Shown here: piece by piece, positions 19,192 to 61,491 of the stretch
How positions within the stretch are numbered: position 1 is the first letter of the stretch
Layout: each line of letters opens with the position of its first letter
Origin: Myxococcota bacterium
GTDB lineage: Bacteria; Myxococcota_A; UBA796; UBA2385
Direction of reading: 5' to 3'
Assembly: GCA_044344255.1 (NCBI GenBank)
Contig: JBIJDH010000005.1
Location: forward strand, 64,001 to 128,000
Length of the DNA: 64,000 nt
The notes under the pieces: generated by a model
What the model was told of the DNA's origin: nothing
Seen by the model: the letters and a program-made list of their open reading frames with translations, nothing else
The model's database searches: none
Translations under genes and position numbers: made by a program

Positions 19192-19249
19192 ACCTGAGCA
19201 AACAGGGGCGAGGGCTATGTGTTAATCGGGAGTACGGACCCCACGACCA

Positions 19250-20281: not shown

Positions 20282-20376
20282 CGCGTCCCCTTGCGCGTCC
20301 CCTTGCGCGTCCCTGTCCGCGTCCCTGTCCGCGTCCCTGTCCGCGTCCCTTCCGCGTGCCTGTCCGCGTCCCCCTC
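20282..20376. repeat. About eight tandem 11-12-bp repeats, consensus CGCGTCCC(TGTC/CTTG)
   Basis: Read directly: two CGCGTCCCCTTG, three CGCGTCCCTGTC and three variants. Confidence 0.9.
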
Positions 20377-20395
20377 CGGCGCCGATGCGGCGCCA

Positions 20396-20418
20396 CCTCC
20401 CCCATAGGATGGGGGAGG
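20396..20418. other. Perfect hairpin CCTCCCCCAT-AGG-ATGGGGGAGG
   Basis: 10-bp stem with a 3-nt loop, about 20 bp from the repeat array. Confidence 0.8.
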
Positions 20419-20550
20419 CTGTTGGCCAGGGTAATCCGGCCATTGTCGCGGTGGCCTCGCGGCCGATGCTCCCCGGTAACAGAGGCGGTGGCGTTGTCTC
20501 CGTGTCCTCTGCACACGATCGAGGAAGGGGAGCGGATCCGACCCAGTGCC

Positions 20551-33004: not shown

Positions 33005-33028
33005 CGGCACCTCGGGCCCGCTCCGGGT

Positions 33029-33481
33029 CTACTCGAGCACCACCGCGGGCTCGCCCATCATCACCCGGTTTGGCTCCGTGGCCACGTCGCCCATGATCTC
33101 GCGGACCGGCGCCGTCTCCTCGGAGAAGATGGCCGAGGGGAGGGCGCAGGGCGCCTCGGTGGCGCTGGCCGTGGCCACTGTCAGCGGCTCGTAGCCGGTG
33201 GCCTGCCGGAGGCCCGCGGCGGCGACCAGGGCCCCCGCCACCACGAAGCCAGCGAGCGCGGGCCGGAAGACGGGCTCGTCCCGCTCGTCGACCTCCACGC
33301 GCACACAGATCGGGGCCTTGTTCTCGCCGAGGAAGGCCTCGGCTTCGGCCCGAGACATGCTGGAGAGGTTCGTGACGTGCTTGTCGCAAGCCGCACAGTA
33401 TCGCTGCCGATCGTCACCGAGCAGCTTCTCCCAGCGGAGGGGACACTCAAAGGCGAGGCGGAAGGTGTGGTCGAGGCGCAT
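33029..33481 (-). CDS. Hypothetical membrane protein with an N-terminal 4-Cys domain
   Basis: CPLRWEKL.GDDRQRYCAACDKHVTNLS...ICVR followed by a TM helix. Confidence 0.75.
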   Translation of the reverse strand: MRLDHTFRLAFECPLRWEKLLGDDRQRYCAACDKHVTNLSSMSRAEAEAFLGENKAPICVRVEVDERDEPVFRPALAGFVVAGALVAAAGLRQATGYEPLTVATASATEAPCALPSAIFSEETAPVREIMGDVATEPNRVMMGEPAVVLE

Positions 33482-33610
33482 GTCCAGCTCCGGTGTCGCG
33501 CTGGAACGAGCGGAGGGGCTCGGCCTTACAGCGCGGCCGCGAGCGACGAGGGCGAGTGCCTTGACAAGCTCCTGGCAATGTGGGAGCAAGGCACACCGCA
33601 AGAGGTCTCG

Positions 33611-41560: not shown

Positions 41561-44500
41561 ATGCGCCTCAGCCCTATCCGCCGGCCCTCTGGCGTTCACC
41601 TCGTCGCCTCCGGGCTCTTGTCCGGGCTCTTCGGTGCCCTGGCCGGGTGCGGGGGCCCCGCTGAGCGGGAAGTAGAGGGGAGCCGCTCGGCGGGAGACAC
41701 GGACGGCGCCGCTGCGATCGCCGTGGACACCGCCGCGGCTGGGTCGGCGCGCGACGGCGGCTGGGGTGCGACTGTCTCTCGTCGACTGGAGGCAGGGCGG
41801 CGGGCCTTCCGAGCGGAGGGGGCCGGATTCCGGGCGACCCACGGCCAGGCGGGTCTGGAGATCCACCTGGACGACCAGGGGGCCGTACTCGACGGCCCCG
41901 AGGGCACCCTCACGATGCGCTTCCTCGCCTGGGGGCGCGGCGGGGCCTTGGTGGAGGCGGAGCCCGCTCGGGCCGAGCTCGGCGACTGTACCGAGGAGAT
42001 CGACGTCACCGGGGACTGCCTGCGTCGGGTGGAACTCTCTCGCGGACCGGTGATCGAGTGGTGGGCCAGCCGCGAAGAGGGTCTCCAGCAGGCCTGGGAG
42101 CTGTCGGAGCGCCCCGCCGGCGAGGGCGAGCTGCGTCTCGTCGTGGGCGTGACGGGCGCGATCCCGTCGCTCGATGACGGGGAGGTCGTCTGGGTGGGCC
42201 ACGATGGCGGCCTGTGGCGAACCGCCTCGCTGGAGGCCTGGGACGCGACCGGGCGCCCCCTCGACGCCCGCTTCGAGCTGGGGGCGGGCTCTGTGGAGGG
42301 TGCGGAGCTGCACGTCGTCGTCGACGACGCGCAGGCCACCTGGCCCATCTTCATTGACCCCATCACGAGCACCGCCGCCTCCACCTGGACCGGCGGCACC
42401 GCGGGTGACCTCTTCGGCGTGGTGGGCGGTGGTGGGGACATCAACGGCGACGGGTATGACGACTTCGTCGTCGGCGCGCCCGGCTACAGCTCGAACACGG
42501 GCGTCGCTTATGTGTTCTACGGCTCCGCCGCCGGCCCGGCCGCGACCGCCGACGTCACCCTCTCATCGCCCTCCACGGGGGCCTACTTCGGCGCCGCCGT
42601 AGACATTGCCGGGGACGTCAACGACGACGGCTACGACGACGTCATCGTGGGCGCGCCCTATGAGTCCACCGCCGCGGCGCTCGCAGGGCGGGCCTATGTG
42701 TACCACGGCACTTCGGCCGGGCTCTCGACCACGGTCGGCTCCACCTTGACCGGCTCGGCCACCGCCGCTGGCTACTTCGGCAACGCCGTCTCTTCGTCGG
42801 GGGACGTCAACGGGGACGGATTCGCCGACGTCATCGTCGGTGAGTACGGCTACTCGAGCTCGAAGGGGCGCGCCTGGGTCTACGCGGGGAGCAGCGCTGG
42901 CGCCTCGTCAACGACCTCCCAGGTCTTCCTCGGCACGTCCTCGGGCGACCGCTTCGGGTGGGCGGTCTCCGGAGGCGGCGACACCACCGTGGACGGCTTC
43001 GATGACATCGCGGTGGGTGCGCCGCTGACGGGGACTGGCGACGCTGGATCGGCCCGGGTCTACAAAGGGGCGAGCAACTTCTTCACCACGGCCCCCTCTG
43101 TCGCCCATTCCTACACCTCATTCACCAACGGATACAACGTCGGCACCGCCGTCAACATCCAAGGTGACTACAACAACGACGGGTACTCCGACCTCGTGCT
43201 CGGCGCGCCCTATGGCCCCGGCTCGGGCTTTGGGCGGGTGTACTTCTACCGCTCCAACACCACCGCCCCCCCCGCCGTCGGCCTCCCGACGGGCAACAGC
43301 GCCACTTTTGACGGGCCGAGCGCCGCCTCGGCCTTCGGGAGCCGCATCGACTGGGTGGGGGACTCCAACGGAGACGGGCGGCAAGACCTCGTCGTGGGCG
43401 GGCCCTATGCGGTCTCCAACGCGGGCTACGCGGGCCTCTACGAGGGGGTCGCCTCGGGCCTCGCGGGGTCGGCGAAGTCCACCTTCTTCTCGGGTTCCGG
43501 CTCGGACCTGCTCGGGCTGTCGGTGGCGGGCGCCGGCGACGTGAACAATGATGGCTATGATGATGTGCTGCTCGGCGCCCCCGGCGCCAGCGGGACCAAG
43601 GGCGAGGTCCGGCTCCACTACGGCGGCGTGGACGCAGACGGGGACACCTACCTGTCGAACGGCAGCAGCTACCAGGTGGACTGCGACGACTCCAACAGCG
43701 CGGTGAACCCGGCCGCCACGGAGCTCTGTGACGAGTTGAACGTCGATGAGGACTGTGACGGGCAGGCCGACGACCTCGACAGCGCCGCCACCGGAGAGAG
43801 CGCCTGGTACGCCGACGACGACGAGGACGGCTACGGAGACGCCGCAGACAGCATCACCGCCTGCGACGCCCCGGCCGGGTATGTCGCCACGAGCGGGGAC
43901 TGCGATGACACCACCGCCGCGCGCAGCCCTGGCAACATGGAGATCTGCGACGGCGCGGACCTCGACGAGGACTGCGACGGCCTCGCTGATGACGCGGACC
44001 CCTCGGCGGACGGCGCTGGCAAGTCCGACGCCTACGTGGACGGTGACGCCGACAGCTACGGCAGCGGAGCCGCGGTGGCGTACTGTGATCTCCCCTCCGG
44101 CTACGCGGCCCAGGACGGGGACTGTGACGACGCCTCGGCCGACGTGAACCCGGGCGCCACCGAGGTCTGTGACGCCGCTGACCTCGACGAGGACTGCGAC
44201 GGCCTCTCCGATGACGCAGACAGCTCGGCCCTCACGGCCTCGAAGAGCAGCTTCCACCCCGACGCCGACGGGGACAGCTACGGCACCACCGCCTCAGCCT
44301 TGTTCTGTGACCTCCCCTCCGGCTACGCCACGAGCACGACGGACTGCGACGACGGCGACGCCGCCATCCACCCGGGCGCCACGGAGCTCTGTGACGCGGC
44401 CGACACCGACGAAGACTGCGACGGCTTGGCCGACAACGCCGACAGCAGCGCCAGTGTGGCCACGAAGTCGAGCTACTACCTCGACGCGGACGGAGACGCG

Positions 44501-47500
44501 TTCGGGGCCGGCAGCGCGGTGAAGTACTGCGATCTCCCCTCCGGCTACTCGCTGGTCGACACCGACTGCGATGACGGCGCAGCGAGCGTGAACCCGGGTG
44601 CGACCGAGCTCTGCGACGCGGCGAACACCGACGAAGACTGCGACGGCCAGGCCGACAACGCCGACAGCAGCGCCAGCGTGGCCACGAAGTCGAGCTACTA
44701 CAGCGACGGCGACAGCGACGGCTACGGGGCCGGCAGCGCGGTGAAGTTCTGCGACCTGCCCACAGGCTACGCCGCCACGAGCACAGACTGCGACGACGGG
44801 GTGGCCGCGGTGAACCCCGGTGCCACCGAGCTCTGCGATGGCGCGGACACCGACGAGGACTGCGATGGGTTGGCCGACAACGCCGACAGCTCGGCCAGCA
44901 CGGCGACCAAGTCGAGCTACTACCTCGACGGGGACGGCGACAGCTACGGCGGCCCGACCACCGCGAAGTTCTGCGACCTGCCCGCGGGCTACACCGTCAC
45001 TTCGACCGACTGCGACGACGCGGTCGCGGCGATCCACCCCGGTGCCACCGAGGTCTGCGATGTGTCCGACACCGACGAGGACTGTGATGGCCTCGCGGAT
45101 GACGATGACAGCTCCGCCTCGGCCGGCACCAAGGGCGACTTCTACGCCGATGGTGACGGCGACGGCTACGGCGCGGGCTCCGCGACCGCCTACTGTGACG
45201 CCCCCACCAGCTATGTCTCGCTCGGCGAGGACTGTGATGACGGCGCGACCGGCGTGAACCCCGGCGCCACCGAGCTCTGCGACGCCACGAACACCGACGA
45301 AGACTGCGATGGGCTCGCCGACAACGCCGACAGCTCGGCCAGCGCCGCCACGAAGGGCAGCTACTACCTGGACGGCGACACCGACGGATACGGCACCGGC
45401 AGCGCGGTGAAGTTCTGCGACCTCCCCACGGGCTACGCGGTCGCGGACACGGACTGCGATGACGCGGTCACCGCCGTGAACCCGGGGGCCACCGAGGTCT
45501 GTGACGCGGCGAACACCGATGAGGACTGTGACGGCCTCGCCGACAACGCCGACACCTCGGCCTCCGTGGCGACGAAGAGCAGCTACTACCGAGACAGTGA
45601 CACGGACGGCTACGGCAGCACCACGACCGCCAAGTTCTGTGATCTGCCGAGCGGCTACTCCACCTCCTCCACGGACTGCGACGACACCTCCACCGCCGTG
45701 AACCCCGGGGCCACCGAGGTCTGCGACGCCGCAGACACCGACGAGGACTGCGACGGGACCGCGGACGATGATGACAGCTCTGTCTCCGCGGCGACCCAGT
45801 CCACGGGCTACCTCGACGGCGACAGCGACGGCTACGGCGGCGCGACGACGGCCCTGTTCTGCGATCTGCCGAGCGGCTACCTCTCGAGCGGCACCGACTG
45901 TGACGACGCCGCCGCCGCCGTGAACCCCGGGGCCACCGAGGTCTGTGACGCCGGTGACACCGATGAGGACTGCGACGGCCTCGCCGATGACGCCGACAGC
46001 TCGGCCTCCGCGGCGACCAAGACCCGCTACTACACCGACAGCGACGGGGACAGCTACGGCACCAGCAGCTCAGCCGACTTCTGTGACCTGCCCTCCGGCT
46101 ACGCCGTCGCCTCCGGGGACTGCGACGACGGCCGCGCCGCCGTCAACCCCGGGGCCACCGAGGTCTGTGACCCGGTGAACCGCGATGAGGACTGCGACGG
46201 CACCGCCGACAACGCCGACAGCTCTGCTTCGGCGATCACCAAGAGCAGCTACTACCAGGACGGCGACGGCGACGGGTATGGCTCGGCCACCACCGGGGCC
46301 TTCTGTGACCTCCCCTCCGGCTACACCGCCGTCGGCGCGGACTGCGACGACGGGGACGCGCTGATCAACCCGGCGGCCGCCGAGGTCTGCGACCCGGCCA
46401 ACGTCGACGAGGACTGTGATGGGCTGGCCGACGACGCCGACTCGAGCACGCTCGCCTCGGGCAAGGTGACCTCCTACCGGGACGTCGATGGAGACAGCTA
46501 CGGCAGCGCCACCACCGCGCTGAGCTGCGACCTCGCCACCGGCTACGTCAGCGTCGGCGGGGACTGTGACGACGGCGCCCCGGCCACCCACCCCGGAGCG
46601 ACGGAGGTCTGTGACGCCTCCGACGCCGATGAGGACTGTGACGGCCTGTCCGACGACAGCGACGGCTCGGTGTCGGCCGCGACCAAGACGACCTACTACC
46701 GCGACACCGACGGCGACGGCTACGCCGGCGCGACGACCGGCGCCTTCTGCTCGGCCCCGAGCGGCTACTACGCGAGCGCCACGGACTGCAAGGACTCCGA
46801 CGACAGCGTCCACCCCGGTGCCACCGAGCTCGTGGCGGACGGTGTGGACCAGACCTGTGACGGACAGGAGCTCTGCTACGTGGACGCCGACGGGGACGGC
46901 TACCGGGTCGAGGACACCATCCTCAGCGCCAGCGTGACCTGCGGCGCGACCGGCCTCGCCCTGGCCAGCGAGCCGGGGGATGACTGCGACGACACCGACG
47001 CCGCCTACAACCCCGGCGCGGTCGAGGCGGACTGCACCGACCCCGCCGACTACAACTGCGACGGCTCGACCGGCTACGCCGACGAGGACAGCGACGGCTA
47101 CGCCGCCTGCGAGGAGTGCGACGACCAGGACGCCGCGATCAACCCGGCCGCCCAGGAGCGCTGTGACGCGCTCGACGTCGATGAGGACTGCGACGGGCTG
47201 ATCGACGACGACGACAGCTCGGTGGACGCCAGCACCAAGACCAGCTTCTACGCTGATGGTGACGGCGACGGCTACGCGGGCTCGACCACGGCCGACTTCT
47301 GTGACCTGCCGACCGGCTTTGGCACCGCCGCCACGGACTGCGATGACGGGGCGGTGGGCGTCAACCCGGGGGCCGCTGAGCTCTGCGATGGCGCTGACGT
47401 GGACGAAGACTGCGATGGGCTCGCCGATGACGCCGATCTGAGCGTCGACCCCGCCTCCTGGTCGGTCAGCTACCAGGACGGTGACGGCGACGGCTACGGG

Positions 47501-48823
47501 GCGACCGCGGCCTCCGTCTCCTGTGATCTGCTCCCCGGCTACGTCGCCGTGGACGGAGACTGCGACGACGCGGCGGAGGTTGTCAACCCCGGCGCCGCGG
47601 AGGTCTGCGACCTCCTCGACACCGACGAAGACTGTGATGGCCTCGCCGACGACCTCGACAGCTCGGTGGACGCCACCAGCTACAGCGCCTTCTACGCCGA
47701 CGTGGACGAGGACGGCTTCGGCGACCCCGACGCGGTGGTCTCGGCCTGTGACGAGTCGGCCGTCGCGGTGGCAGATGACAGCGACTGCGACGACGAGGAC
47801 GCCCTCGTCAACCCAGACGCCATCGAGATCGTGGGCGATGGGATTGACCAGGACTGTGACCTCGGCGAGCTCTGCTACGTGGACGCGGACGGGGACGGTT
47901 GGCGGACCGACGCTGAGGTGGCCTCCTCCACCCTCGACTGCAGCGGCGTCGGCGAGGGCCTCGCCTCCGACCCCACCGACGACTGCAACGACGCCGATCC
48001 CGCCTTCCACCCTGGCGCCACCGAGGACGACTGCAGCGATCCGAGCGACTACAACTGCGACGGCTCGGTCGGCTACGCGGACGCGGACGGCGACGGCTAC
48101 GCGGCCTGCGAGGAGTGTGATGACGGGGCGGTGGGCGTCAACCCCGACGCCACCGAGGTCTGCGACGGCGTGGACAATGACTGCGACACCGTGGCCGACG
48201 GCGCCGACGCCATGGACGCCCTCACCTGGTACGGCGACCTCGACGCCGACGGCTACACCAACCCCGACGACAGCGCGGTCGCCTGCGATGCGCCCGATGG
48301 CTACGCCGCCGCCTCCGCCGAGGCCGACTGCGACGACCTCGATGAGGGCGTGAACCCCGCCGCCCTCGAGGGCGTGGACGACGCGCTCGATCAGGACTGC
48401 GACGGGCTCGAGCTCTGCTACGTAGACGCCGACGACGACGGCTTCCGCCCCGACGAGACCAGCACGGCGGAGAGCGCGGACCTGCTCTGCGACGGCGCGG
48501 GCGAGGCCACGGCCGAGGACGCCGCGGGAGACTGCGACGACGACAACCCCGACGCCTACCCCGGCGCCGAGGAGGTCGCGGGGGACGCGGTCGATCAGGA
48601 CTGCGACGGCGCCGACCTCCCGGGCGACACGGGTCCGGAAGACACCGGCCCGACTGACGGAGACACCGGCGGCTCGGCGGACGGCGGCGACGGCGGCGAC
48701 GGCGGCTTCACCGGCGGTGGTAAGGGCTGCGGCTGCTCGGCCGGCGCGGGGGCCTCTGCGGGCTGGCTGGGCCTCCTGCTCGGCGTCGCGGCCCTCGGCG
48801 CCCGTCGCCGTCGGGTGGCCTGA
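41561..48823 (+). CDS. Giant surface protein 2 (2420 aa): N-domain, 7 FG-GAP repeats, 24 Cys/Asp repeats, MYXO-CTERM
   Basis: GGAG precedes the ATG, LAGC lipobox. Hand counts give 7 FG-GAP and 24 Cys/Asp units. The tail is GKGCGCS-TM-RRRR. Paralogous to the upstream gene. Confidence 0.92.
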   Translation: MRLSPIRRPSGVHLVASGLLSGLFGALAGCGGPAEREVEGSRSAGDTDGAAAIAVDTAAAGSARDGGWGATVSRRLEAGRRAFRAEGAGFRATHGQAGLEIHLDDQGAVLDGPEGTLTMRFLAWGRGGALVEAEPARAELGDCTEEIDVTGDCLRRVELSRGPVIEWWASREEGLQQAWELSERPAGEGELRLVVGVTGAIPSLDDGEVVWVGHDGGLWRTASLEAWDATGRPLDARFELGAGSVEGAELHVVVDDAQATWPIFIDPITSTAASTWTGGTAGDLFGVVGGGGDINGDGYDDFVVGAPGYSSNTGVAYVFYGSAAGPAATADVTLSSPSTGAYFGAAVDIAGDVNDDGYDDVIVGAPYESTAAALAGRAYVYHGTSAGLSTTVGSTLTGSATAAGYFGNAVSSSGDVNGDGFADVIVGEYGYSSSKGRAWVYAGSSAGASSTTSQVFLGTSSGDRFGWAVSGGGDTTVDGFDDIAVGAPLTGTGDAGSARVYKGASNFFTTAPSVAHSYTSFTNGYNVGTAVNIQGDYNNDGYSDLVLGAPYGPGSGFGRVYFYRSNTTAPPAVGLPTGNSATFDGPSAASAFGSRIDWVGDSNGDGRQDLVVGGPYAVSNAGYAGLYEGVASGLAGSAKSTFFSGSGSDLLGLSVAGAGDVNNDGYDDVLLGAPGASGTKGEVRLHYGGVDADGDTYLSNGSSYQVDCDDSNSAVNPAATELCDELNVDEDCDGQADDLDSAATGESAWYADDDEDGYGDAADSITACDAPAGYVATSGDCDDTTAARSPGNMEICDGADLDEDCDGLADDADPSADGAGKSDAYVDGDADSYGSGAAVAYCDLPSGYAAQDGDCDDASADVNPGATEVCDAADLDEDCDGLSDDADSSALTASKSSFHPDADGDSYGTTASALFCDLPSGYATSTTDCDDGDAAIHPGATELCDAADTDEDCDGLADNADSSASVATKSSYYLDADGDAFGAGSAVKYCDLPSGYSLVDTDCDDGAASVNPGATELCDAANTDEDCDGQADNADSSASVATKSSYYSDGDSDGYGAGSAVKFCDLPTGYAATSTDCDDGVAAVNPGATELCDGADTDEDCDGLADNADSSASTATKSSYYLDGDGDSYGGPTTAKFCDLPAGYTVTSTDCDDAVAAIHPGATEVCDVSDTDEDCDGLADDDDSSASAGTKGDFYADGDGDGYGAGSATAYCDAPTSYVSLGEDCDDGATGVNPGATELCDATNTDEDCDGLADNADSSASAATKGSYYLDGDTDGYGTGSAVKFCDLPTGYAVADTDCDDAVTAVNPGATEVCDAANTDEDCDGLADNADTSASVATKSSYYRDSDTDGYGSTTTAKFCDLPSGYSTSSTDCDDTSTAVNPGATEVCDAADTDEDCDGTADDDDSSVSAATQSTGYLDGDSDGYGGATTALFCDLPSGYLSSGTDCDDAAAAVNPGATEVCDAGDTDEDCDGLADDADSSASAATKTRYYTDSDGDSYGTSSSADFCDLPSGYAVASGDCDDGRAAVNPGATEVCDPVNRDEDCDGTADNADSSASAITKSSYYQDGDGDGYGSATTGAFCDLPSGYTAVGADCDDGDALINPAAAEVCDPANVDEDCDGLADDADSSTLASGKVTSYRDVDGDSYGSATTALSCDLATGYVSVGGDCDDGAPATHPGATEVCDASDADEDCDGLSDDSDGSVSAATKTTYYRDTDGDGYAGATTGAFCSAPSGYYASATDCKDSDDSVHPGATELVADGVDQTCDGQELCYVDADGDGYRVEDTILSASVTCGATGLALASEPGDDCDDTDAAYNPGAVEADCTDPADYNCDGSTGYADEDSDGYAACEECDDQDAAINPAAQERCDALDVDEDCDGLIDDDDSSVDASTKTSFYADGDGDGYAGSTTADFCDLPTGFGTAATDCDDGAVGVNPGAAELCDGADVDEDCDGLADDADLSVDPASWSVSYQDGDGDGYGATAASVSCDLLPGYVAVDGDCDDAAEVVNPGAAEVCDLLDTDEDCDGLADDLDSSVDATSYSAFYADVDEDGFGDPDAVVSACDESAVAVADDSDCDDEDALVNPDAIEIVGDGIDQDCDLGELCYVDADGDGWRTDAEVASSTLDCSGVGEGLASDPTDDCNDADPAFHPGATEDDCSDPSDYNCDGSVGYADADGDGYAACEECDDGAVGVNPDATEVCDGVDNDCDTVADGADAMDALTWYGDLDADGYTNPDDSAVACDAPDGYAAASAEADCDDLDEGVNPAALEGVDDALDQDCDGLELCYVDADDDGFRPDETSTAESADLLCDGAGEATAEDAAGDCDDDNPDAYPGAEEVAGDAVDQDCDGADLPGDTGPEDTGPTDGDTGGSADGGDGGDGGFTGGGKGCGCSAGAGASAGWLGLLLGVAALGARRRRVA

Positions 48824-49026: not shown

Positions 49027-49995
49027 ATGGACGACGCCACCCCCGCGACCCTCTCGACGGCCGCACCGCGGTCGGCGTGCCGTCGTGGGGCTCGGACGGC
49101 GCTCCGGGTCGCCGTGCTCGGGGTCCTGGTCGGGCTCGTCCTCCAACGGCTCGACCTCGCGGCCGTCTCGGCCGCCTGGCGCGGCGTGACCCCCGGAGGA
49201 GCTTTGGGTGTGATCGCCTGCTTCGGGGCGGCGATGACCGTCCGTGTGGGGAAGTGGGCCTGGCAGGTCCACCGGCTTGACCTCCCCTTTGACCTCCTCC
49301 CGCTGACCCGCGCCTTCCTCACCGGCATCGTGCTCGGGGCCGTGACGCCGCTTCGGGCCGGGGAGGTCTATCGACTGTCGGGGTTACGGCTCGACCCCGC
49401 CCGGCGCGCCGAGCAGGTCGCCCTGACCGGCGCGAGCCTCCTCCTCGAGAAGGTCTACGAGCTGTTGATCCTGGTCACCATCGCCTCCGCCGGCCTCGTC
49501 CGCCTCCGCCCCGGGCTCGGCCTCGGCTTGCTGAGCGGCGTCGGGGTCGCCGCCGTGATCAGCCTCAGCGGGGCGCGGCCCCCCGCAGGCTGGCTGCGGG
49601 CCCTCCCCGCCCGTCTCCGCCGCCTCACCATCGATCCGCTCCTCCAAGCCCGAGACGGCCTCGGCCTCGGCGGGCGGCTCGGCCTCGTCTCGCTCACCGC
49701 GGCGGCCCACGGCCTCAACACCCTCGGCGCGCTCGGCGTGTACCGGGCCTTTGGGCCGATGTCGGCCGACACGCTCTTCTTCCGGATGCCGCTCGTCACG
49801 CTCACCAACGCCCTGCCGCTCTCGATCGGCGGCATCGGGGTGAGAGAGCTCGCGGCCATGTACATCTTCGGGGGCGCCACCTTCCCCGCGTCGAGCGCCG
49901 CGCTCGCCGCCTCGGTGGTCTTCGTCGGCGCCAACCTGTTGCCCGCGTTGGTCCTCCCCCTCCTCGCCCTCGTCCCCGAGAGACGCTCCCCCTGA
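49027..49995 (+). CDS. UPF0104/LPG-synthase-TM family flippase-like membrane protein
   Basis: Motifs R..KW, TPLRAGEVYR, LLEKVYE and PLSIGGIGVRE. The stop overlaps the next start (TGATG). Confidence 0.85.
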   Translation: MDDATPATLSTAAPRSACRRGARTALRVAVLGVLVGLVLQRLDLAAVSAAWRGVTPGGALGVIACFGAAMTVRVGKWAWQVHRLDLPFDLLPLTRAFLTGIVLGAVTPLRAGEVYRLSGLRLDPARRAEQVALTGASLLLEKVYELLILVTIASAGLVRLRPGLGLGLLSGVGVAAVISLSGARPPAGWLRALPARLRRLTIDPLLQARDGLGLGGRLGLVSLTAAAHGLNTLGALGVYRAFGPMSADTLFFRMPLVTLTNALPLSIGGIGVRELAAMYIFGGATFPASSAALAASVVFVGANLLPALVLPLLALVPERRSP

Positions 49996-51176
49996 TGAAG
50001 ACCGCCCCCGCTCGAATTCTCGTCCTCGGGGGCGACGGCTATGTCGGCTGGCCCCTCGCGCTGAAGCTCGCGCTCAGCCACCCCCAGGCCAGGGTGTTGC
50101 TGGCGGACAACCTCTCGCGACGGCGGCTCGTCGCCGAGGTCGGTGGCGACAGCGTCACGCCGATCGCGGCGCCCGCGGAGCGCATCCGCGCCTTTCGAGA
50201 CACCTTCGAGCAGGACAACCTGAGCTTCGTGGGTGTTGATGCGGCGAGCCCCGCCCTCGACGCCCTCGTCGAGGCCGAGCAGCCCACCCACATCTTTCAC
50301 CTCGCCCAGCAGGCGAGCGCGCCCTACTCGATGATGGACCCCGAGCGGGCGGTCTACACGGCGACCAACAACGAGGTGGGCAACCTGCGGGTGCTGTGGG
50401 CCATCCGGCGCCACGTCCCGACCGCGCACCTCATCAAGCTCGGGAGCTTCGGGGAGTACGCCCGACCCGGCTTCGACGTCGCCGAGGGCTACTTCCGGCC
50501 CACCTACAAGGGGGTGGAGGCGTCGGTCGACACACCCTTTCCGCGGGCCGCAGACGACATTTATCATGTCACCAAGATCAACGATACGAATTTCATCTCG
50601 ATGGCCTGTCGGAAGTGGGGCCTCCGCGTCACCGATGTCATGCAGTCCACCCTCTTCGGCGTCTTCACGGCCGAGACGAGGCTGCACCCCGCCCTCTACA
50701 CCCGCTTCGACTACGACGCCGTGTTCGGCACCGTGCTCAATCGGTTCCTGACCCAGGCGGTGATGGGCTGCCCCTTGACCGTCTATGGCACGGGCTGGCA
50801 GCGCACGGGCCTGATGGCGCTCGAGGACGCCACGGGCTCCCTCGCCGCGCTGGTCGACCACCCACCCGCCGTGGGCGAGCACCGTGTCATCAACCACGTC
50901 ACCGAGCGCGACTTCTGCATCAACGAGCTCGCGGAGCGCGTGCAGGCGGTCGCGTCCAGCCGCGGCGCGACCATCCCCATCGAGCGCACCTTCGACCCCC
51001 GCAATGAGCAGGATCTCTGCAAGGCGACCTACACCGTCGAGGCGGGCCACGTAGATGAGCACGTCCGCCCGACCCCGCTCGATCAGGTGCTGGGCCCGGT
51101 CTTCGACATCGTCGCCCTTAACGCAGCACGCATCGATCCCCGCCGCTTCGCGCCCACGGTGCGCTGGTGCGGTTGA
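49995..51176 (+). CDS. sqdB: UDP-sulfoquinovose synthase-like SDR (SqdB/SQD1/Agl3 family, divergent)
   Basis: Motifs GGDGYVGWP, DNLSRR, SAPYSM, HLIKLG..GEY, YHxxK, WGLRVTD, RFDYDAVFGTVLNRF and PLTVYG are characteristic of SQD1/SqdB. Confidence 0.85.
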   Translation: MKTAPARILVLGGDGYVGWPLALKLALSHPQARVLLADNLSRRRLVAEVGGDSVTPIAAPAERIRAFRDTFEQDNLSFVGVDAASPALDALVEAEQPTHIFHLAQQASAPYSMMDPERAVYTATNNEVGNLRVLWAIRRHVPTAHLIKLGSFGEYARPGFDVAEGYFRPTYKGVEASVDTPFPRAADDIYHVTKINDTNFISMACRKWGLRVTDVMQSTLFGVFTAETRLHPALYTRFDYDAVFGTVLNRFLTQAVMGCPLTVYGTGWQRTGLMALEDATGSLAALVDHPPAVGEHRVINHVTERDFCINELAERVQAVASSRGATIPIERTFDPRNEQDLCKATYTVEAGHVDEHVRPTPLDQVLGPVFDIVALNAARIDPRRFAPTVRWCG

Positions 51177-51185
51177 GCGTCGCGC

Positions 51186-52349
51186 ATGAGTGACGAAGCG
51201 CGTGAGGCCGACGAGGCGCCCTGGGAGGCGCTCCGGCTCGAACACTTCTCGGGGGAGCGGCTCAACCTCAACCCGGGCACGCTGGGCACCCCCTCCGCCG
51301 ACGTGCGGCGGGCGATGACCGCCTTTCGGGAGGAGGACGGAGAGGCCTATCCGCTCGGGCGATACACACGGGGACGCGCCGCGCTCCGACGGGCTCGGGC
51401 GCTCGCCGAGTCGCTGTGGGGGGAGGCCCCTGCGATCTGCGGGAGCGCCTCTCACACCATGAACCTCATCGCCTGGTCCCTCGCGCGCTCCTGCGGGGAG
51501 CCCGTGCCCGTCCTCGCCACGACCCATGAGCACCATGGGGCGGTCGCGGTCTTCGAGCGGGACGCGGCCTTCCTCCTCACCACGCTCCCTCCGGCGCAGC
51601 TCGCCTGGGAGGAGGCGCTGCGCCAGCACCTGCGCCGGTCGCCCCCGCGGGTGGCCCTCTTCTCCCAGCGCACCTGGACCGAGGGGAGGCGCCTTCCGGT
51701 GGAGGCGTGGTGCCGGGCGCTCTCGGAGGAGGCGCCGGGCTGCCTCCGCATCGTCGACGCCGCTCAGGTGGTCGGCCTCGGACCCCCCGCGCTCCAGGAC
51801 GCCGACGTCGTGGTGGCGAGCGCCCACAAGTGGCTCTTCGGGCCGGCGGGGCTGGGCTTCGCCTGGGTCTCCGATCGAGCCCGGGTCACCCTCGGCGAGC
51901 TCTGGCGCACCGGCGAGCCCCTCGACCCGGGCGCCCGCCTCGCCGGCTGGGAGGCCGCGGGTGGTCAGGACTTCGCCCTCTACGCCGGCCTCGAGGCGGC
52001 GCTCGCCCTCTATGCCCGCATCGGCCCCGCGCGGGTCCGGGCGCGCAGCCGGGCCCTCGCCGATTGGCTCGCCGCCGCACTCGGTCCGCTCCTCCCCGAC
52101 GCCCGGGTCGAGGCGGAGGACGGCGTGGTGCGCGCGTGCTTCGCGGGCGGCGATCCCTATCCGCTCTATGTCTCGCTCAACGTCATCGGGATCCACTGCA
52201 AGTGTATCAAGTCTGAGCTGGCGGACGGCGAGCGCCTGGCTGTCCTCCGCTTCGGACTCCCCTGGTACGAGACCCGCGCTCGCCTCGGTCGCCTCCTCGA
52301 GGCGGTCCAAGCGGCCGATCCGCGGGCCCGGGAGCCGGGCCGTGAGTGA
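51186..52349 (+). CDS. Class-V PLP-dependent enzyme (C-S lyase, desulfinase or isopenicillin epimerase-like)
   Basis: Motifs LNPGTLG, THEHH, VDAAQ and SAHKWLFGPAGLG (PLP Lys). Confidence 0.88.
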   Translation: MSDEAREADEAPWEALRLEHFSGERLNLNPGTLGTPSADVRRAMTAFREEDGEAYPLGRYTRGRAALRRARALAESLWGEAPAICGSASHTMNLIAWSLARSCGEPVPVLATTHEHHGAVAVFERDAAFLLTTLPPAQLAWEEALRQHLRRSPPRVALFSQRTWTEGRRLPVEAWCRALSEEAPGCLRIVDAAQVVGLGPPALQDADVVVASAHKWLFGPAGLGFAWVSDRARVTLGELWRTGEPLDPGARLAGWEAAGGQDFALYAGLEAALALYARIGPARVRARSRALADWLAAALGPLLPDARVEAEDGVVRACFAGGDPYPLYVSLNVIGIHCKCIKSELADGERLAVLRFGLPWYETRARLGRLLEAVQAADPRAREPGRE

Positions 52350-53976
52350 CACCCCCACCGAGAGACAGGGCGCCCTCGTCCAGTTCGCGCTGATCGCAGG
52401 CCTCGTCGCGCTCAAGGTGCAGGTCAACGCGGGGATGACCAGCTTCGGCACCGACGGGAGCCTGTACCTGGAGGTGGCGAGGAACGTCCGAGACGGCCGC
52501 GGGCTCGTGAGCTTCATCTCGCTCATGAACGCAGGGGTGGAGTCATTTCCCTATCCGACGCCGCTCTATCCGATCTGGCCGCTGCTCCTCGGCGTCGTGG
52601 GCCGAGTGGTCCCCATCGAGGTGGCCGCGATCTGGCTTCCGACCCTCTTCTACTTCGGGGCGGTGGTCCAGGCCGCGCGCCTCGCCCGCACCTTGTGGCC
52701 AGGGCCCCTCTTCCCGGACGGCTGGCGGCCCCTCGACGCCGGCCACGTCGCGATCCTGCTGCTCGGCTACAACAGCCTGTTCTTCGAGTACACCTCGGTG
52801 CCCTACACGGAGGGCCTGGCCTGGTGTGGGCTGTTCTTCCTCCTGTTACGCGCGCGGGCCTTCTTTGGCCAGCCCTCCGCGTTGCGGGCGGCGGAGGTGG
52901 GCCTTTATACGGGTCTGTTGATCCTGGTGCGCTCCCAGATGTTCCTCGCCTCCCTGGCGCTCGGGGGCACCTTCGCCTGGGCGCTGCTCACCACCCGAGA
53001 GCGGGGGCGCTGGGCGGGCTACGCGGCGGCTGCAGCGGCCGGCTGGGGGCTGGCGCTCGCCCCGCAGCTCCTCTATCTCTCCACCTTCTATCACCCGCTC
53101 GGCCTCAACGCCTTGCTTCGTTTTGACGACTTCAGAGCCTCAAACCTTCTTACCCCGCTCCAGACCCTTCGGCCGGCCGGGGGCGCCTTCGCCTGGCTCC
53201 TCGATCGCGCGGAGGGCTTCGACGTCGCCTACACCGTCGGGGGTCGCTATGCCTACGTCCAGAACTTCGGGGTCCTGCACTGGGCGCCGCCCCTCGCGGT
53301 CCTGTTCGGGCTCCGCCGGTGGCGCGACCCGACCCGGGCTGCCTGGGCGCGCCTGCGAGAGCCCTCCGCCGCCTTCACGACCTACCTCGTGCTGCTGGCG
53401 CTCGGCGGCTTCGCCTCGATCCACACCCTCCACAAGGACTTCGGCGCTGAGTGGAATTTCGCCACCCGGCACGCACTGACCGTCCTCTTCCTCTTCGGAT
53501 GGGGCGTGGTCTCCCTGGCCGCGCGCGGGGGGGCTGGCCGCACGGCGGCGGTGGCCATCCTCAGCATTACCGGCTGGCTGCAGGCGATGGACTTGAAGGC
53601 CCTCTACAAGGACACCGAGGCCAGCGCGAGCTCGGGGATCCAGCGCCGCGCCGGCCTCGTCTGGTGGATCCAGCAGGCGCGGCGGGCCGATCCCGCCTTG
53701 CTCATCGTCACCGACGAGCCCCAGCGCCTGGCCGTGCTGGTCCCCGACCTCCCGGTCCACTCGGTCTGGCTCCGCAGCAGCTACGATGACCTCTGGACCC
53801 TGTTCGACTACTTCGGCGCCGACTACCTCATCATCAATGACCGCATCGAGAAGTACGACTTCGCCAACGACCCCCGGTGGACGGAGGGCTTCGAGCTCGT
53901 GGCTCCCGACATCAGCGGCGAGGCGGTTTATCGGCGGCGTGACCTCGCCTCCTCCGAGACCGAGCCCGTCCCCTGA
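52342..53976 (+). CDS. GT-C fold (ArnT/PMT-like) membrane glycosyltransferase
   Basis: GGAG precedes GTG 52342, which overlaps the upstream stop. TM1 is followed by the loop TDGSLY...A.N...G.G, then P.YP.LL, YTE and R.Q. About 10 TM helices and a C-terminal GADYLII domain. Confidence 0.75.
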   Translation: MSDTPTERQGALVQFALIAGLVALKVQVNAGMTSFGTDGSLYLEVARNVRDGRGLVSFISLMNAGVESFPYPTPLYPIWPLLLGVVGRVVPIEVAAIWLPTLFYFGAVVQAARLARTLWPGPLFPDGWRPLDAGHVAILLLGYNSLFFEYTSVPYTEGLAWCGLFFLLLRARAFFGQPSALRAAEVGLYTGLLILVRSQMFLASLALGGTFAWALLTTRERGRWAGYAAAAAAGWGLALAPQLLYLSTFYHPLGLNALLRFDDFRASNLLTPLQTLRPAGGAFAWLLDRAEGFDVAYTVGGRYAYVQNFGVLHWAPPLAVLFGLRRWRDPTRAAWARLREPSAAFTTYLVLLALGGFASIHTLHKDFGAEWNFATRHALTVLFLFGWGVVSLAARGGAGRTAAVAILSITGWLQAMDLKALYKDTEASASSGIQRRAGLVWWIQQARRADPALLIVTDEPQRLAVLVPDLPVHSVWLRSSYDDLWTLFDYFGADYLIINDRIEKYDFANDPRWTEGFELVAPDISGEAVYRRRDLASSETEPVP

Positions 53977-54010
53977 TGGATCCCCTCACCCACATCGGTT
54001 ACACGATCAG

Positions 54011-54790
54011 ATGACCTTCTCGGCCCTCCTCCTGTCGTCGAAGGTGTTGGCCAGCCCGGCCGCGGTGGGCGCCGCCTTGAAGGTCCAGGCTGCCTCGTCC
54101 AGTCACCCCGTCCCCACGCTCAGCGTCGGCGACCTACAACGCCTCGACGCCGGCGAGGTAGTCCGGCTGCGGACCCCCAGCGCGGAGGGCACAGCGATCG
54201 GCGCCCTGGGCCTGGTGATCACCGACCTGTCTCCCAAGGACCTGTGGATGGGCACCCTCGACCCGCACGGCCGCCTGCCCAGCGACATTCGGATGCACGC
54301 CCTCCCGGGTGTCGCGGACGAGCTGTACCGCTGGTACGGCTTCGTCGACCTGCCCGCGCCCCTAAAAGACCGCCACTTCCTGGTGCGCACCACCATCGAC
54401 ACACCCATGGCGGCCCGGAGCCAAGGTTCGATCTGGGAGCGGAGCTGGGGACTGGAAGTAGGCTGGCCGCAGGCGATGCGTCCCCTGATAGACCGCGGTC
54501 AGATCGCCGACATGGATGTCGAACACTTCGATGACGCGATCCCGACGCCGGTGAACCAAGGCACCTGGACGGTGCTGGATCTCCGGGACGGCCGCAGCCT
54601 ACTCGCTTACCAGGTCGCAACGGCGCTCGGGGGGGACCTCCCGGATGGTCCCCTCAACCGCTACCTCTATTGGACCCTCAACGACGTCCTGACCGGCGTG
54701 GTCAACACCGCTCGCACCATGTCACAACATTATGTGACCGGTCACGACCCGCTCATCGGCGGTGACGGAAAGGCCATCGCGACCTATTGA
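54011..54790 (+). CDS. START/SRPBCC-like ligand-binding protein, possibly exported
   Basis: YGFVDLPAPLKDRHF, NQGTW and YQV...LGGDLP resemble START-domain motifs. The N-terminus is short and hydrophobic. Confidence 0.55.
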   Translation: MTFSALLLSSKVLASPAAVGAALKVQAASSSHPVPTLSVGDLQRLDAGEVVRLRTPSAEGTAIGALGLVITDLSPKDLWMGTLDPHGRLPSDIRMHALPGVADELYRWYGFVDLPAPLKDRHFLVRTTIDTPMAARSQGSIWERSWGLEVGWPQAMRPLIDRGQIADMDVEHFDDAIPTPVNQGTWTVLDLRDGRSLLAYQVATALGGDLPDGPLNRYLYWTLNDVLTGVVNTARTMSQHYVTGHDPLIGGDGKAIATY

Positions 54791-54886
54791 GGGCACGGGA
54801 TGGGTGAGTGACGGTGCGCCAAGGCCCGGGCGCCCCACGGACTATGGTTGCCACGACCTCGCCTCCTCGGAGGCCGGAGCCGCCCC

Positions 54887-55432
54887 ATGATCGATCCCCT
54901 GCTCCGCGCCCTGGCCCCCCTGGCCCCTGCGGTCCACGACATGCAGGGTGTCGCCGCGTTGGTCCGGGCCATCTCACCGCTCGTGGGCACCCTCCGGGTG
55001 CGCGACGGCGACCTCCCCTGGGGCCGCTACCTCCTCCACCTCGCTCCGGACGCCTCCTGGAACCTCCAGCTTGACGTCTTCTCCGAGGGCTACGAGGGCG
55101 GAGTCCACGCGCACGGGACCTGGGGCGCCTTCTGGGTGCTCCGCGGGGCGCTGTGGACCGAGCAGCTCACGATGGGGCCCAACGGGGCCCGCCTGTCGGG
55201 GGCCGGCTTCGTGACCCCCGGCGGCTGTGGCGCCTTCTGCCCCCCGGAGAGCGACTGGCACCGGGTGGGTAGCCCCGCGCAGGGCGAGCAGACCGTGAGC
55301 CTGCACCTCTACGGCCGCGGCTTCGATCTCGACGTGGGCGAGGGGATCGGACCGGATGGCCTTCCCCGTCGTTATGCGCGCAGCCCCTGGGGCGCGCCGA
55401 GCCGGGTCCTGGGCGCGGTGGTGGCTCGGTGA
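54887..55432 (+). CDS. Cysteine dioxygenase-family (thiol dioxygenase) cupin
   Basis: WGRYLL (Arg-type site), HAH plus HRV (3-His iron ligands) and SLHLY (Ser-His-Tyr triad). Confidence 0.82.
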   Translation: MIDPLLRALAPLAPAVHDMQGVAALVRAISPLVGTLRVRDGDLPWGRYLLHLAPDASWNLQLDVFSEGYEGGVHAHGTWGAFWVLRGALWTEQLTMGPNGARLSGAGFVTPGGCGAFCPPESDWHRVGSPAQGEQTVSLHLYGRGFDLDVGEGIGPDGLPRRYARSPWGAPSRVLGAVVAR

Positions 55433-56475
55433 GCGCCCCCGGGCCGACGGCGGGGTGGGTGATCTCCGCTGCAGCCGTCGCCGCCCTCCCGGCGATGCTC
55501 TGGCTTCGCAGGGGGCGCTACGGCCGACGGGAGCTTCGTTTCGCCCTCGCCGCCCTCACCCTCGCCGCCCTCGCGCCGCTGCCCGGCCTCGGCCCCTGGA
55601 TGGTGGCCCTGCCCGAGCGCCTCTGCGGCGCCACGCCGGCCCAAGCGGCCCTCGCCGCCCTGGCGTTGGCGCTGGCGTCCTGGGCCCGCCGCGCGGAGCG
55701 CAGGGCCCGGTCGGCCGAAGAGGGCCTCTTCGCGCTCGGCCGGGCCCTCGCCGTCGACGCTGCCCTCGCCATCCCGAGGGAGGGCCTCGCTCCCGAGATC
55801 GTCGTGATCATGCCGGCGCTCGACGAGGCGGAGAGCCTGCCGGGGGTGCTGTCGGGCGCGCCGTCGGAGGTCCTCGGCCGCAGCCTCCGTGTCCTCGTGG
55901 TCGACGACGGCTCGGCCGACGATACGGCGGCCGTCGCGGCACGCCACGGCGCGATCAGCGTGCGCAGCGCAGTCAACGGGGGGGGCGGGCACGCGCTGCT
56001 GATCGGCTTCGCCGCCGCACGACGGCTGGGCGCCCGGTGGGCTGTGACGATGGACGCCGATGGTCAGCACCGCTTCGAGGACCTCCCCGCCCTCCTCGCC
56101 CCCCTGCTGGCTGGGGAGGCCGACGTCGTGGTGGGCAGCCGGCGGCTCGGGGCCTCGATCGGCCACGAGGCGCTGCGAGCGGTGGGGCTCCGCGTCTTCA
56201 ACCTCGCACTCAGCCTGATCACGGCGCGGCGGGTGACCGACTGCTCGAGCGGCCTCCGGGCCTTCGACCTGCACGCCACGCGGGGCCTCCGCCTCCGCCA
56301 GCGCCGCCACCACACCGCTGAGCTGCTCATCGAGGCCAGCCGGAGGGGCATGCGCATCGTCGAGGTGCCGATCACCATCCTGCCCCGCGCCCACGGCGAG
56401 ACGAAGAAGGGCCCGAACTGGCTCTACGGAGCGCGCTTCGCGGGGACCGTCACCAGCACGCTCTGGGAGGCCTGA
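55429..56475 (+). CDS. DUF2304-like membrane domain fused to a GT2 polyprenyl-phosphate glycosyltransferase
   Basis: Motifs MPALDE, VVDDGS.D, MDADGQH, GSR and TD..SG.RA. The N-terminus has three hydrophobic helices. GTGA overlap with the dioxygenase gene. Confidence 0.88.
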   Translation: MSAPGPTAGWVISAAAVAALPAMLWLRRGRYGRRELRFALAALTLAALAPLPGLGPWMVALPERLCGATPAQAALAALALALASWARRAERRARSAEEGLFALGRALAVDAALAIPREGLAPEIVVIMPALDEAESLPGVLSGAPSEVLGRSLRVLVVDDGSADDTAAVAARHGAISVRSAVNGGGGHALLIGFAAARRLGARWAVTMDADGQHRFEDLPALLAPLLAGEADVVVGSRRLGASIGHEALRAVGLRVFNLALSLITARRVTDCSSGLRAFDLHATRGLRLRQRRHHTAELLIEASRRGMRIVEVPITILPRAHGETKKGPNWLYGARFAGTVTSTLWEA

Positions 56476-59612: not shown

Positions 59613-60962
59613 TCAGAGCCCCCAGCGGGTCTCGACCAGCACGTTGCGGGTGAGCAGCCACTGGCTGAGCAGGGCCCGGCTGGTGCTGATCGCCTCGTCG
59701 GTGCACTCGGTGCGGGGATCGGCCACGGCGAGGTCGGCGGTGAGCGCGGCCTGGGCCTCGAGGGTGGCGGTGAGGGCGGCGAGGTCGAGGCTGTCGAGGA
59801 AGGCCTCGGTGGCGTCGCGCTGATCGTAGGCGCAGTTCCCGTCTTGCAGGCAACCCAGGCCGAGGCGGCCCACGGGGCCCGTCCACTGGACGCCCCAGGC
59901 GCCGTCGAGGTTGAAGCTGTTGTCGAGACCCGCAGGCGCCAGCTCGGCGCCGCCAGTGGTGGGGTCAAAGTAGACGAAGTACTGGTCATGATCGAGGAAG
60001 TAGCCGTCTACCTGACCGATCCACTCTTCGACCGCCCACATGCGGTGCACCGCCTCCCAGTGGACCACGGCGCTCGTGGTGCCGTCGTACTCGGGGGTGC
60101 CGAGCGTGGACTCGATCGCGGCGGTCACGGCGAGGACGTCGGCCAGCGCGACGTCCTCGCCGGCGAGCAGGCGGAAGCCGCCGTCGAGCCCGGTCTGGAA
60201 GTCGACCGCGCTCTGGCTGCCATCTTCGGCGACGAGGTTCTGCCCGTCGTAGAGGTTGCCCGTCCCGTTGGCCCAGCCGCGGCGCGCGAAGGCGGAGTCT
60301 GCGGCCTCGACGACCACGTAGAGACCGAAGTCTTCACCGTTGAGGGTGAGCGAGCCGTAGCCCGTACGCTGCGCCGGAACGCCGCCCTGTCGGAACAGCG
60401 CGCTGCCGATGGAGCGCTTGAGGCCGGAGCAGTCCTCGAGCGCGTTGTCGAGCACGAGGGCGGACATGCCCGTGAGGCGAGCGTCGGGGTCGTAGGCGTC
60501 GAACTGCAGGCGCAGCTCCGGCTTGCCTGCGAGCGAGCGGAAGGTGGGCCCGGCGCCACCGAGGCGGAGGCCGACGGGCTCGATCTCCTCGCCGTCGAGG
60601 GTGAAGCGGGCCTCGACCATCGCGGTGGGGTCGGCCTCGAGCGCGGCGACCGCTTCGGGCTCGACGCGGAGGCTCATGGTGTGGATGACGGTGGGGTCGA
60701 AGACCCAGTCGTCGTCGGGCAGGGTGTAGGAGCCGACGTCTTCGACGATCCAGTCGGGGCCGGTGTCGGGGTCTCGAACGGGGGCGGTGACGCCGGGGAC
60801 GGGGTCGCGCAGGCCATCGGCGCCCGGCAGGGGGGAGCAGCCGGCGAGGGTGAGCGCGCCGAGGGTGAGCGCGCCCTGGCCGATCGCGATCCAGCCGGGG
60901 CAAGGCGCATGAGCGCCCCGCGGAGAGCGACGCCACGGGCGCCGCTCAGGGAGCGGCTTCAT
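59613..60962 (-). CDS. CotH-kinase family lipoprotein with degenerate motifs
   Basis: LAGC lipobox and motifs VGLRLGG...FR, L.LDN..ED, LNGEDFGLYVVVE, GNLY and DGY. Confidence 0.8.
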   Translation of the reverse strand: MKPLPERRPWRRSPRGAHAPCPGWIAIGQGALTLGALTLAGCSPLPGADGLRDPVPGVTAPVRDPDTGPDWIVEDVGSYTLPDDDWVFDPTVIHTMSLRVEPEAVAALEADPTAMVEARFTLDGEEIEPVGLRLGGAGPTFRSLAGKPELRLQFDAYDPDARLTGMSALVLDNALEDCSGLKRSIGSALFRQGGVPAQRTGYGSLTLNGEDFGLYVVVEAADSAFARRGWANGTGNLYDGQNLVAEDGSQSAVDFQTGLDGGFRLLAGEDVALADVLAVTAAIESTLGTPEYDGTTSAVVHWEAVHRMWAVEEWIGQVDGYFLDHDQYFVYFDPTTGGAELAPAGLDNSFNLDGAWGVQWTGPVGRLGLGCLQDGNCAYDQRDATEAFLDSLDLAALTATLEAQAALTADLAVADPRTECTDEAISTSRALLSQWLLTRNVLVETRWGL

Positions 60963-61491
60963 TCGATGCTCCCGGGCTGCCCCGGTAGGTGAAGGTGAAG
61001 CAGCCGGCGCTCTCGCAGCAGTCGGTGACCCGCGCGATGCTGGTGTCGCTCTCCATCTCGCCGTACTGGAGCAGCACCGCGTGTCCGTTCGGGTCACGGA
61101 GCCCGACGCTGCCGCCCACGCCGTCGAGGGCGAAGCGGAGGTGGGTGGCGCCGAGCTCGGGGTGGGCGTCGGCCCAGAGCAGGAGGAAGCCGCCCGCAGC
61201 GACGCTGAGGCCGTCGAGGGACTGCAGATCGGGCTTGTCGGGGTCGTTCGTGAGGGTCCAGCCGTCGAGCGCCACGTCGAAGCCGGTCGGGTTGTGGAGC
61301 TCGAGCCAGTCGGGCTTTCGCCCGAGCTCATCGACCACGCTGCCGAGGTTGACCGGCATGAGCTCGTTCAGGCAGAGGGCGGGCCTGCGCGGGGCGGCGG
61401 GCGCCCCGCCCGTGTCGTCGGCGGACGTGTCGCCTCGCGCGGCGGCGGGCGCGTTCTCGGGGGTACAGGCGAGGATCAGGGCGAGCCACAC
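60946..61491 (-). CDS. Lamin-tail-domain (LTD) lipoprotein
   Basis: ILAC lipobox and motifs LNELM..N, DWLELHN, L.GW.L.D and SPG..N. Confidence 0.85.
   Translation of the reverse strand: MWLALILACTPENAPAAARGDTSADDTGGAPAAPRRPALCLNELMPVNLGSVVDELGRKPDWLELHNPTGFDVALDGWTLTNDPDKPDLQSLDGLSVAAGGFLLLWADAHPELGATHLRFALDGVGGSVGLRDPNGHAVLLQYGEMESDTSIARVTDCCESAGCFTFTYRGSPGASNEAAP

Follow-up and report, generated by a model that had tools for sequence, protein, structure and literature searches.

A conserved trio of SqdB-like, class-V PLP and thiol dioxygenase genes that may build a cysteine-derived sulfur sugar for lipid-carrier glycosylation

Introduction

From what source does an SqdB-like enzyme take its sulfur when its gene is tied to genes for a class-V pyridoxal phosphate (PLP) enzyme and a thiol dioxygenase? 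This question is raised by a seven-gene operon at positions 49027-56475 of a 64,000-nucleotide stretch of a Myxococcota bacterium genome (assembly GCA_044344255.1, contig JBIJDH010000005.1; hereafter, the whole stretch is called the window). Characterized SqdB-family enzymes add sulfite, yielding UDP-sulfoquinovose (PMC13436972, PMC4388408), and sulfite is the only donor described in two reviews (PMC13436972, PMC8987622). We propose that three of the seven products, B (SqdB-like), C (PLP enzyme) and F (dioxygenase), make a cysteine-derived 6-sulfur nucleotide sugar via an amino-acid S-adduct, without free sulfite, and that neighboring transferases deliver it to the cell surface, a reading that we consider rather more probable than improbable. 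The proposal draws on genes, folds, residues, linkage and gene fusion, from which we infer all of the chemical steps.

In the proposed pathway, B would oxidize and dehydrate UDP-glucose to a 4-keto-5,6-ene, as SQD1 and Agl3 do in a step established for the family, and would then add the sulfur of an amino acid at C6 in place of sulfite. Two nucleophiles come into question: L-cysteine, in which case the reactions would run in the order B, C, F, and cysteine sulfinate supplied by F, which would give the order F, B, C. Sulfinates are good nucleophiles toward enones. C would beta-eliminate the adduct, as its kinship to C-DES and EgtE suggests, with pyruvate and ammonia leaving and the sulfur staying on the sugar, and F would supply two oxygens before or after adduct cleavage. 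Both orders would lead to UDP-6-deoxy-6-sulfino-glucose, from which further oxidation to sulfoquinovose is conceivable. G would attach the sugar to polyprenyl phosphate, export would fall to A or a different flippase, and D would pass the sugar to a putative surface acceptor, as in the standard route for such transfers.

Were this correct, it would represent a new way to build a sulfur sugar and a sulfite-free route to a redox-active surface sugar. We regard the trio as a variant of SqdB-based glycan modification, and the odds that it involves both an unknown sulfur-insertion chemistry and an unknown sugar are about even. An SqdB-like clade that is always accompanied by a putative C-S lyase and a thiol dioxygenase points either to insertion chemistry new for this fold, together with a sugar not yet seen in nature, or at the least to an integral sulfite supply of a new kind. 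Three soluble enzymes are enough to test the question directly, and a cultured eukaryote offers a natural B-C fusion.

Gene content and conservation of the locus

Seven open reading frames (ORFs), all on the plus strand, span the locus:

A, 49027..49995, plus strand: flippase-like membrane protein of the LPG_synthase_TM family (PF03706, 64.1 bits, cut-off 33.4); accessory
B, 49995..51176, plus strand: divergent UDP-sulfoquinovose-synthase-like, NAD-dependent short-chain dehydrogenase/reductase (SDR) of the "DDxYH clade" (SQD1 match, 1.6e-78), proposed C6 S-adduct synthase; core
C, 51186..52349, plus strand: class-V PLP enzyme without the desulfurase cysteine motif (PF00266), proposed C-S lyase; core
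D, 52342..53976, plus strand: membrane glycosyltransferase of GT-C fold (structure model matches); usual partner
E, 54011..54790, plus strand: START/SRPBCC-like protein with hydrophobic N-terminus (Atlas lead); local insertion
F, 54887..55432, plus strand: Arg-type thiol dioxygenase (cupin) of a dedicated clade (thiol-dioxygenase alignments); core
G, 55429..56475, plus strand: GT2 glycosyltransferase of the polyprenyl-phosphate type (PF00535) with an N-terminal membrane (DUF2304-like) domain; usual partner

The initial annotation had described seven co-oriented, mostly overlapping or near-adjacent genes, and the coordinates bear this out: A and B overlap by 1 base, C and D by 8 and F and G by 4, and gaps of 9, 34 and 96 bases separate B from C, D from E and E from F. 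Most of its family assignments also held; the START-like identity given to E has an Atlas lead and no Pfam match, and the DUF2304 domain named in G was undetected in the window protein. D and F likewise had no Pfam match. B, C, D and F are each single-copy in the window's genome.

We compared the operon with 14 other loci that carry members of the B clade (L017, L018-L023, L048-L051, L147, L148 and L177). C lies next to B or is fused with it in 13 of them, and the sole locus without C beside B, L048, has only 83 bases of downstream sequence. F belongs to the locus in 8 of the 14; in another 3 it is encoded at a separate site of the genome, and the last 3 are metagenome contigs. G stands immediately 3' of F in all but one (L050) of the 11 other cases with F located, D turned up in 8 further genomes or loci, and A is directly upstream of B in three of the 14 (L020, L021 and L147). 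The gene order B-C-(D)-F-G is seen again in other families and phyla, a recurrence that goes beyond chance. The core is B, C and F, usually with G and D, and A is optional; co-occurrence elsewhere, which the initial annotation had proposed to check, is supported.

Neither C nor F occurs at any of 115 other SqdB-like loci, 86 of which have at least 1.5 kb of downstream sequence and many of which are kin. In a survey of 401 genomes of the window's phylum, apparently one and the same sample in each search, clade-B, C and strong F matches mark the same 4 genomes, and C and F are both lacking from nine genomes that carry other SqdB-like genes. Sequences of those 4 genomes had gone into the C profile in part, so that for C the absences are what is informative. 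Further carriers are assigned to Leptospiria, Spirochaetota and proteobacteria. No B-clade member was found in plasmid sequences, and a scan of viral sequences gave no match. The tendency of F to stay with G where the operon is split was considered as proof of reaction order and is weak as such, given that two of the genomes concerned, G061 and G062, are kin and that a third case, G586, may be a contig break. No description of the B-C-F trio was found in the literature searched, a search with most subscription papers and supplements outside its scope. We take the feature to be genuine and widely conserved, and apparently without an earlier description. Some clade proteins are named "UDP-sulfoquinovose synthase", so that estimates of sulfoquinovose makers may wrongly include them.

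Divergence of the SqdB-like enzyme

B shares with SQD1 (PDB 1qrr, 1i24), SqdB and Agl3 the fold, the Rossmann motif and the equivalents of His95, Thr/Ser145, Glu147, Tyr148, Tyr182, His183 and Lys186. It differs from them in forming a long-branch clade, in scoring below the NCBIfam equivalog NF041015 (332.2 bits, cut-off 575), in replacing Arg101, the methionine and Ser180, and in having an obligate and often fused partner, C. The clade is a separate long branch in the tree (FastTree, support 0.95). B retains His102, Ser151, Glu154, Tyr155, Tyr190 and Lys194, which comprise the Thr/Ser, Tyr and Lys of SDR enzymes along with the His95, Glu147 and Tyr148 equivalents, and carries Ala107 for Arg101, Phe152 for Met145 and Asp188 for Ser180. 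In Agl3, changing Arg101 or Met145 to Ala inactivates the enzyme and loss of Ser180 impairs it (PMC4388408). Besides Asp188, B has the extra acidic residues Glu127 and Asp187. Among its 120 best homologues the Arg101 equivalent is absent in 104, and Glu127, Asp187 and Asp188 are present in 119, 115 and 120, respectively; none of the three acidic residues is found in the 36 remaining SqdB sequences of the alignment behind the tree. Judged by its score and these residues, B is not a canonical SqdB and would keep what is needed for forming the 4-keto-5,6-ene, and the acidic residues together with the loss of Arg101 would fit an amino-acid nucleophile better than the sulfite dianion. Loss of Arg101 was rejected as sufficient proof against sulfite use, because other SqdB groups also lack it and one member adjoins CysH.

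The class-V PLP enzyme and its fusion to B

C has neither of the desulfurase cysteine motifs, SSGSACTS and RxGHHCA (PMC8300815), and no Cys at the catalytic position; it carries instead an H-x-K-C-I-K motif with a short loop. The class-V PLP site residues are nearly invariant (His116, Asp191, Gln194, His214-Lys215 and Arg355). Cys340 was considered as a persulfide carrier, a role that is unlikely because this residue, conserved in 82 of 92 sequences, is replaced by Phe, Tyr or Ala in 9, including the fusion protein P0220. The best PDB sequence match of C is C-DES, which the sequence profile ranks first (87 vs 73 bits); the best NCBIfam match is EgtE (33.7, cut-off 400), and EgtE (8irk) is also the top Foldseek match of the structure model (predicted local distance difference test, pLDDT, 93). 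VIA Z scores for the fold are 35.7 for PvdN, 35.5 for C-DES, 34.7 for EgtE and 34.6 for SufS. By position, the invariant Lys339 and Arg355 may match the carboxylate-binding Arg337 and Arg348 of EgtE (PMC10805701). Overall, C may be nearer to the S-conjugate lyases than to the desulfinases, though its fold ties with that of SufS.

The closest parallels to the proposed route are the YcfA-YcfC thioguanine system, in which cysteine addition by YcfA is followed by cleavage through YcfC, a C-DES-like enzyme (PMC12494993), EgtE/Egt2 and C-DES; by analogy, cysteine would be placed on an activated nucleotide substrate and the adduct then cut by a class-V lyase lacking a persulfide cysteine. The window system differs from YcfA-YcfC in that a sugar enone would be the substrate and an NAD-dependent SDR the adding enzyme, and in that a dioxygenase belongs to the unit.

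At L051, B and C lie in one reading frame, and a search with the C profile, in which nine long matches were opened, gave four full B-C fusions (P0198, P0203, P0205 and P0220) and two partial ones (P0201 and P0243). P0198 is ANDGO_01679 of the cultured jakobid protist Andalucia godoyi, a full fusion with 56% identity to B and 34% to C that was possibly transferred from bacteria. Three stand-alone C proteins (P0166, P0175 and P0186) carry the source name "UDP-sulfoquinovose synthase", a sign that the label was carried over from B-C fusions.

The thiol dioxygenase

F has the signature of the thiol dioxygenases: the iron site His74/His76/His125 is present in all 42 homologues, the residues of the Ser138-His140-Tyr142 triad in 42, 41 and 42 of them, and Arg47, which aligns to Gln63 of Av3MDO and to Arg60 of cysteine dioxygenase (CDO), in all 42. 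It shares with 3-mercaptopropionate dioxygenase (MDO; 6xb9, 3uss), CDO and mercaptosuccinate dioxygenase (8vni) the three-His site, the Ser-His-Tyr triad, Gly at the Cys93 position and Arg at the Arg60 position, and it departs from them in forming its own clade below detection by PF05995 and in having Asp63 for the hydrophobic Leu75/Phe79 of CDO/MDO. PF05995, the cysteine dioxygenase family, gave no match for the window protein and weak matches for 7 of the 42 homologues (best E 7e-4). The best PDB matches are 3-mercaptopropionate dioxygenases, followed by CDO. The clade also conserves Gln61, Tyr69, Gly71 and Arg165, and Trp or Tyr occupies the CDO Tyr58 position. Since 3-mercaptopropionate dioxygenases carry Gln where cysteine-type enzymes carry Arg (PMC8050391), Arg47 appears to favor cysteine as the substrate, with the polar pocket being compatible with another; from its residues, we classify F as a dedicated Arg-type thiol dioxygenase.

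This assignment bears on the order of reactions. Nucleotide sugars are not known to us as substrates of any thiol dioxygenase; together with the retained Arg, this weakens the order B, C, F. The order F, B, C would respect the cysteine-type Arg and need no new dioxygenase substrate. The fuller picture, in which an SqdB-fold enzyme takes its nucleophile from cysteine or cysteine sulfinate, a fused or neighboring C-S lyase cuts the adduct back, a thiol dioxygenase sets the oxidation state and a sulfinate (or thiol) sugar travels via a lipid carrier to the surface in several bacterial phyla, with the enzymes also present in a jakobid, has in our judgment an equal chance of being right or wrong.

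Sulfur source and alternative pathways

The window's genome has CysD and CysN and no CysH; its PF01507 match was examined as a candidate CysH and rejected, being CysD beside CysN. No sulfite reductase was found in G000, G048, G393, G324 or G065 (about 89-98% complete where stated), and PF01507 had no match in G048, G393 and G065 and two weak ones in G324. In the four small Leptospiria/Spirochaetota genomes G061-G064, by contrast, ATP sulfurylase, CysH and sulfite reductase are all encoded, and B, C, F and G are retained nonetheless. Because the trio is kept in genomes able to make sulfite from sulfate, sulfite shortage alone does not explain it.

Several observations weigh against the S-adduct route, and some of them favor the alternative nearest to the initial annotation, in which the operon holds a private sulfite supply: F would be a true cysteine dioxygenase, C would desulfinate cysteine sulfinate, and B would make ordinary UDP-sulfoquinovose for G, A and D. 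We regard this as possible although unlikely. Each of its steps is known chemistry, and the handing of sulfite to B would account for the B-C fusion. F keeps the Arg of cysteine-type dioxygenases and the Trp/Tyr at the Tyr58 position; sulfite release from cysteine sulfinate is not known to need the catalytic cysteine of desulfurases, and SufS comes within about 1 Z unit of the best fold match of C. Class-V enzymes of the CsdA type act as cysteine sulfinate desulfinases (PMC8300815). Nor is the loss of Arg101 specific: the residue is missing from many SqdB-like proteins of actinobacteria, haloarchaea and other groups, and one such gene of another group (L152:7374-9273, in an exopolysaccharide cluster) lies directly before a CysH-type reductase gene, which suggests sulfite use without Arg101. 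Within the DDxYH clade itself, a subgroup (16 of the 120 matches, P0095-P0120, e.g., Amaricoccus solimangrovi WP_140452291.1) keeps Arg101 and has Ala for Glu147, and Asp188 could be a mere helix cap. The lack of a clear CysH and of sulfite reductase in the five carriers of the window-phylum type fits a sulfite-supply role equally well, as it fits any cysteine-fed route, and the genomes G061-G064 that retain the trio alongside Sat, CysH and sulfite reductase are kin rather than independent cases. Retention of the trio in those genomes nevertheless speaks against a mere sulfite supply, as does its restriction to one clade: a generic sulfite source should serve any SqdB, yet C and F are missing from all of the 115 other SqdB loci. 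Nor would B need new acidic residues to use sulfite, and the best named matches of C are S-conjugate lyases. Cells already possess housekeeping enzymes, aspartate aminotransferase and SufS/CsdA, that set sulfite free from cysteine sulfinate, which would make a dedicated, fused C superfluous if the route ran through sulfite. The initial annotation had derived the sulfur from cysteine, which is plausible, and had the operon make its own sulfur donor; that free sulfite of this kind feeds an ordinary SqdB is made less certain by the rewired B clade, the apparently more lyase- than desulfinase-like C and the persistence of the trio in G061-G064.

Two further alternatives change the chemistry of B or C. 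An improbable one is that the product is not a C6 sulfur-oxyacid sugar at all, with, for example, B adding a nitrogen nucleophile, C acting in a PvdN-like manner or in transamination, or F acting on an unrelated thiol. PvdN is among the tied best fold matches of C and the acidic residues of B would suit an amine too, but F has the full thiol-dioxygenase signature and co-occurs strictly with B and C, and all three families handle sulfur. About as improbable, in our view, is a pathway in which C, like C-DES, would first release sulfide or a persulfide of cysteine from cyst(e)ine, B would add this to the enone to make UDP-6-thio-glucose and F would oxidize it to the sulfinate. C-DES, to which C has its best PDB sequence match, produces sulfide or persulfide (PMC8300815), a fusion would channel such reactive species, and Cys340 is fairly conserved; the replacements of Cys340 noted above make a catalytic carrier unlikely, however, and the acidic residues of B would go unexplained.

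Proposed transfer to the cell surface

GT2, flippase-like and GT-C genes occur together in the window locus. Three-component polyprenyl-phosphate routes of this kind include ArnC/EF/T, GtrABC and the archaeal Agl types. The likeness lies in the GT2 protein G, whose best NCBIfam matches, below their cut-offs, are PpgS and AglJ, in the PF03706 flippase-like protein A and in the GT-C fold of D; the window system is unlike these routes in its predicted unusual donor sugar and in a flippase that is not always linked. The structure model of D (predicted template modeling score, pTM, 0.78) matches the GT-C folds of AglB, AftA, PglB and ArnT, and an invariant Asp38 follows its first helix. DUF2304 was found in five of seven G orthologues, in one of them above the cut-off, and no PF03706 flippase-like gene was found in G062 or G064. 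Agl3 resembles the window system in feeding a non-lipid glycan, and transferases can use 6-thio UDP-sugars as donors (PMC12308420). An SqdD-type transferase was not found in the window's genome (95% complete) with one query, the glycosyltransferase downstream of Sinorhizobium sqdB in L160. The view of the initial annotation that the product would be routed to a polyprenyl-phosphate GT2, flippase and GT-C rather than to an adjacent sulfolipid synthase is supported. At L050 the trio would instead feed an ordinary polysaccharide cluster.

The arrangement of SqdB-like genes beside GT2, GT-C and flippase genes is common in other groups. Many actinobacterial, haloarchaeal and other SqdB-like proteins without Arg101 (L024-L047, L052-L127 and L151-L162) are encoded beside DUF2304-GT2, GT-C, AglB-like or flippase genes, and a clear D homologue (33% identity) lies near an SqdB-like gene of another clade, without C or F (L154:2-1741, L142). 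The lipid-carrier half of the operon is therefore ordinary, and the B-C-F trio is its new part. At L050 (11130-13661), B-C-F lies inside a polysaccharide cluster with NeuB, a cytidylyltransferase, ABC transporters and GT4/GT2 genes, and with neither G nor D.

The START-like gene E, which the initial annotation had counted as part of the system, does not belong to it: E is absent from all 14 other clade loci and from all 7 other D-F junctions, and with this distribution its candidacy as the lipid carrier of the system was rejected as well. Its Atlas feature matches (0.92-0.94) are to START and polyketide-cyclase clusters, and two paralogues occur elsewhere in the genome.

Other features of the window

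Directly upstream of the operon lie two tandem genes for giant FG-GAP and MopE-repeat proteins (32450-41437 and 41561-48823), which are Ser/Thr-rich and end in a GCGC-hydrophobic-RRR tail. These proteins were considered as glycan acceptors, a role that is unsupported: the genome has 89 such ORFs, and one was found beside only 1 of 10 other loci examined. Unlinked to the operon, a DUF2079 membrane protein (PF09852) is encoded at 12781-14127, which we take to be possibly a second membrane glycosyltransferase. The GC content dips to about 64% at 18-21 kb (18211-20500), around a minus-strand ORF without a Pfam match (18211-19191), and a CotH-family kinase gene (PF08757) is found at 59990-61331 among genes for secreted proteins.

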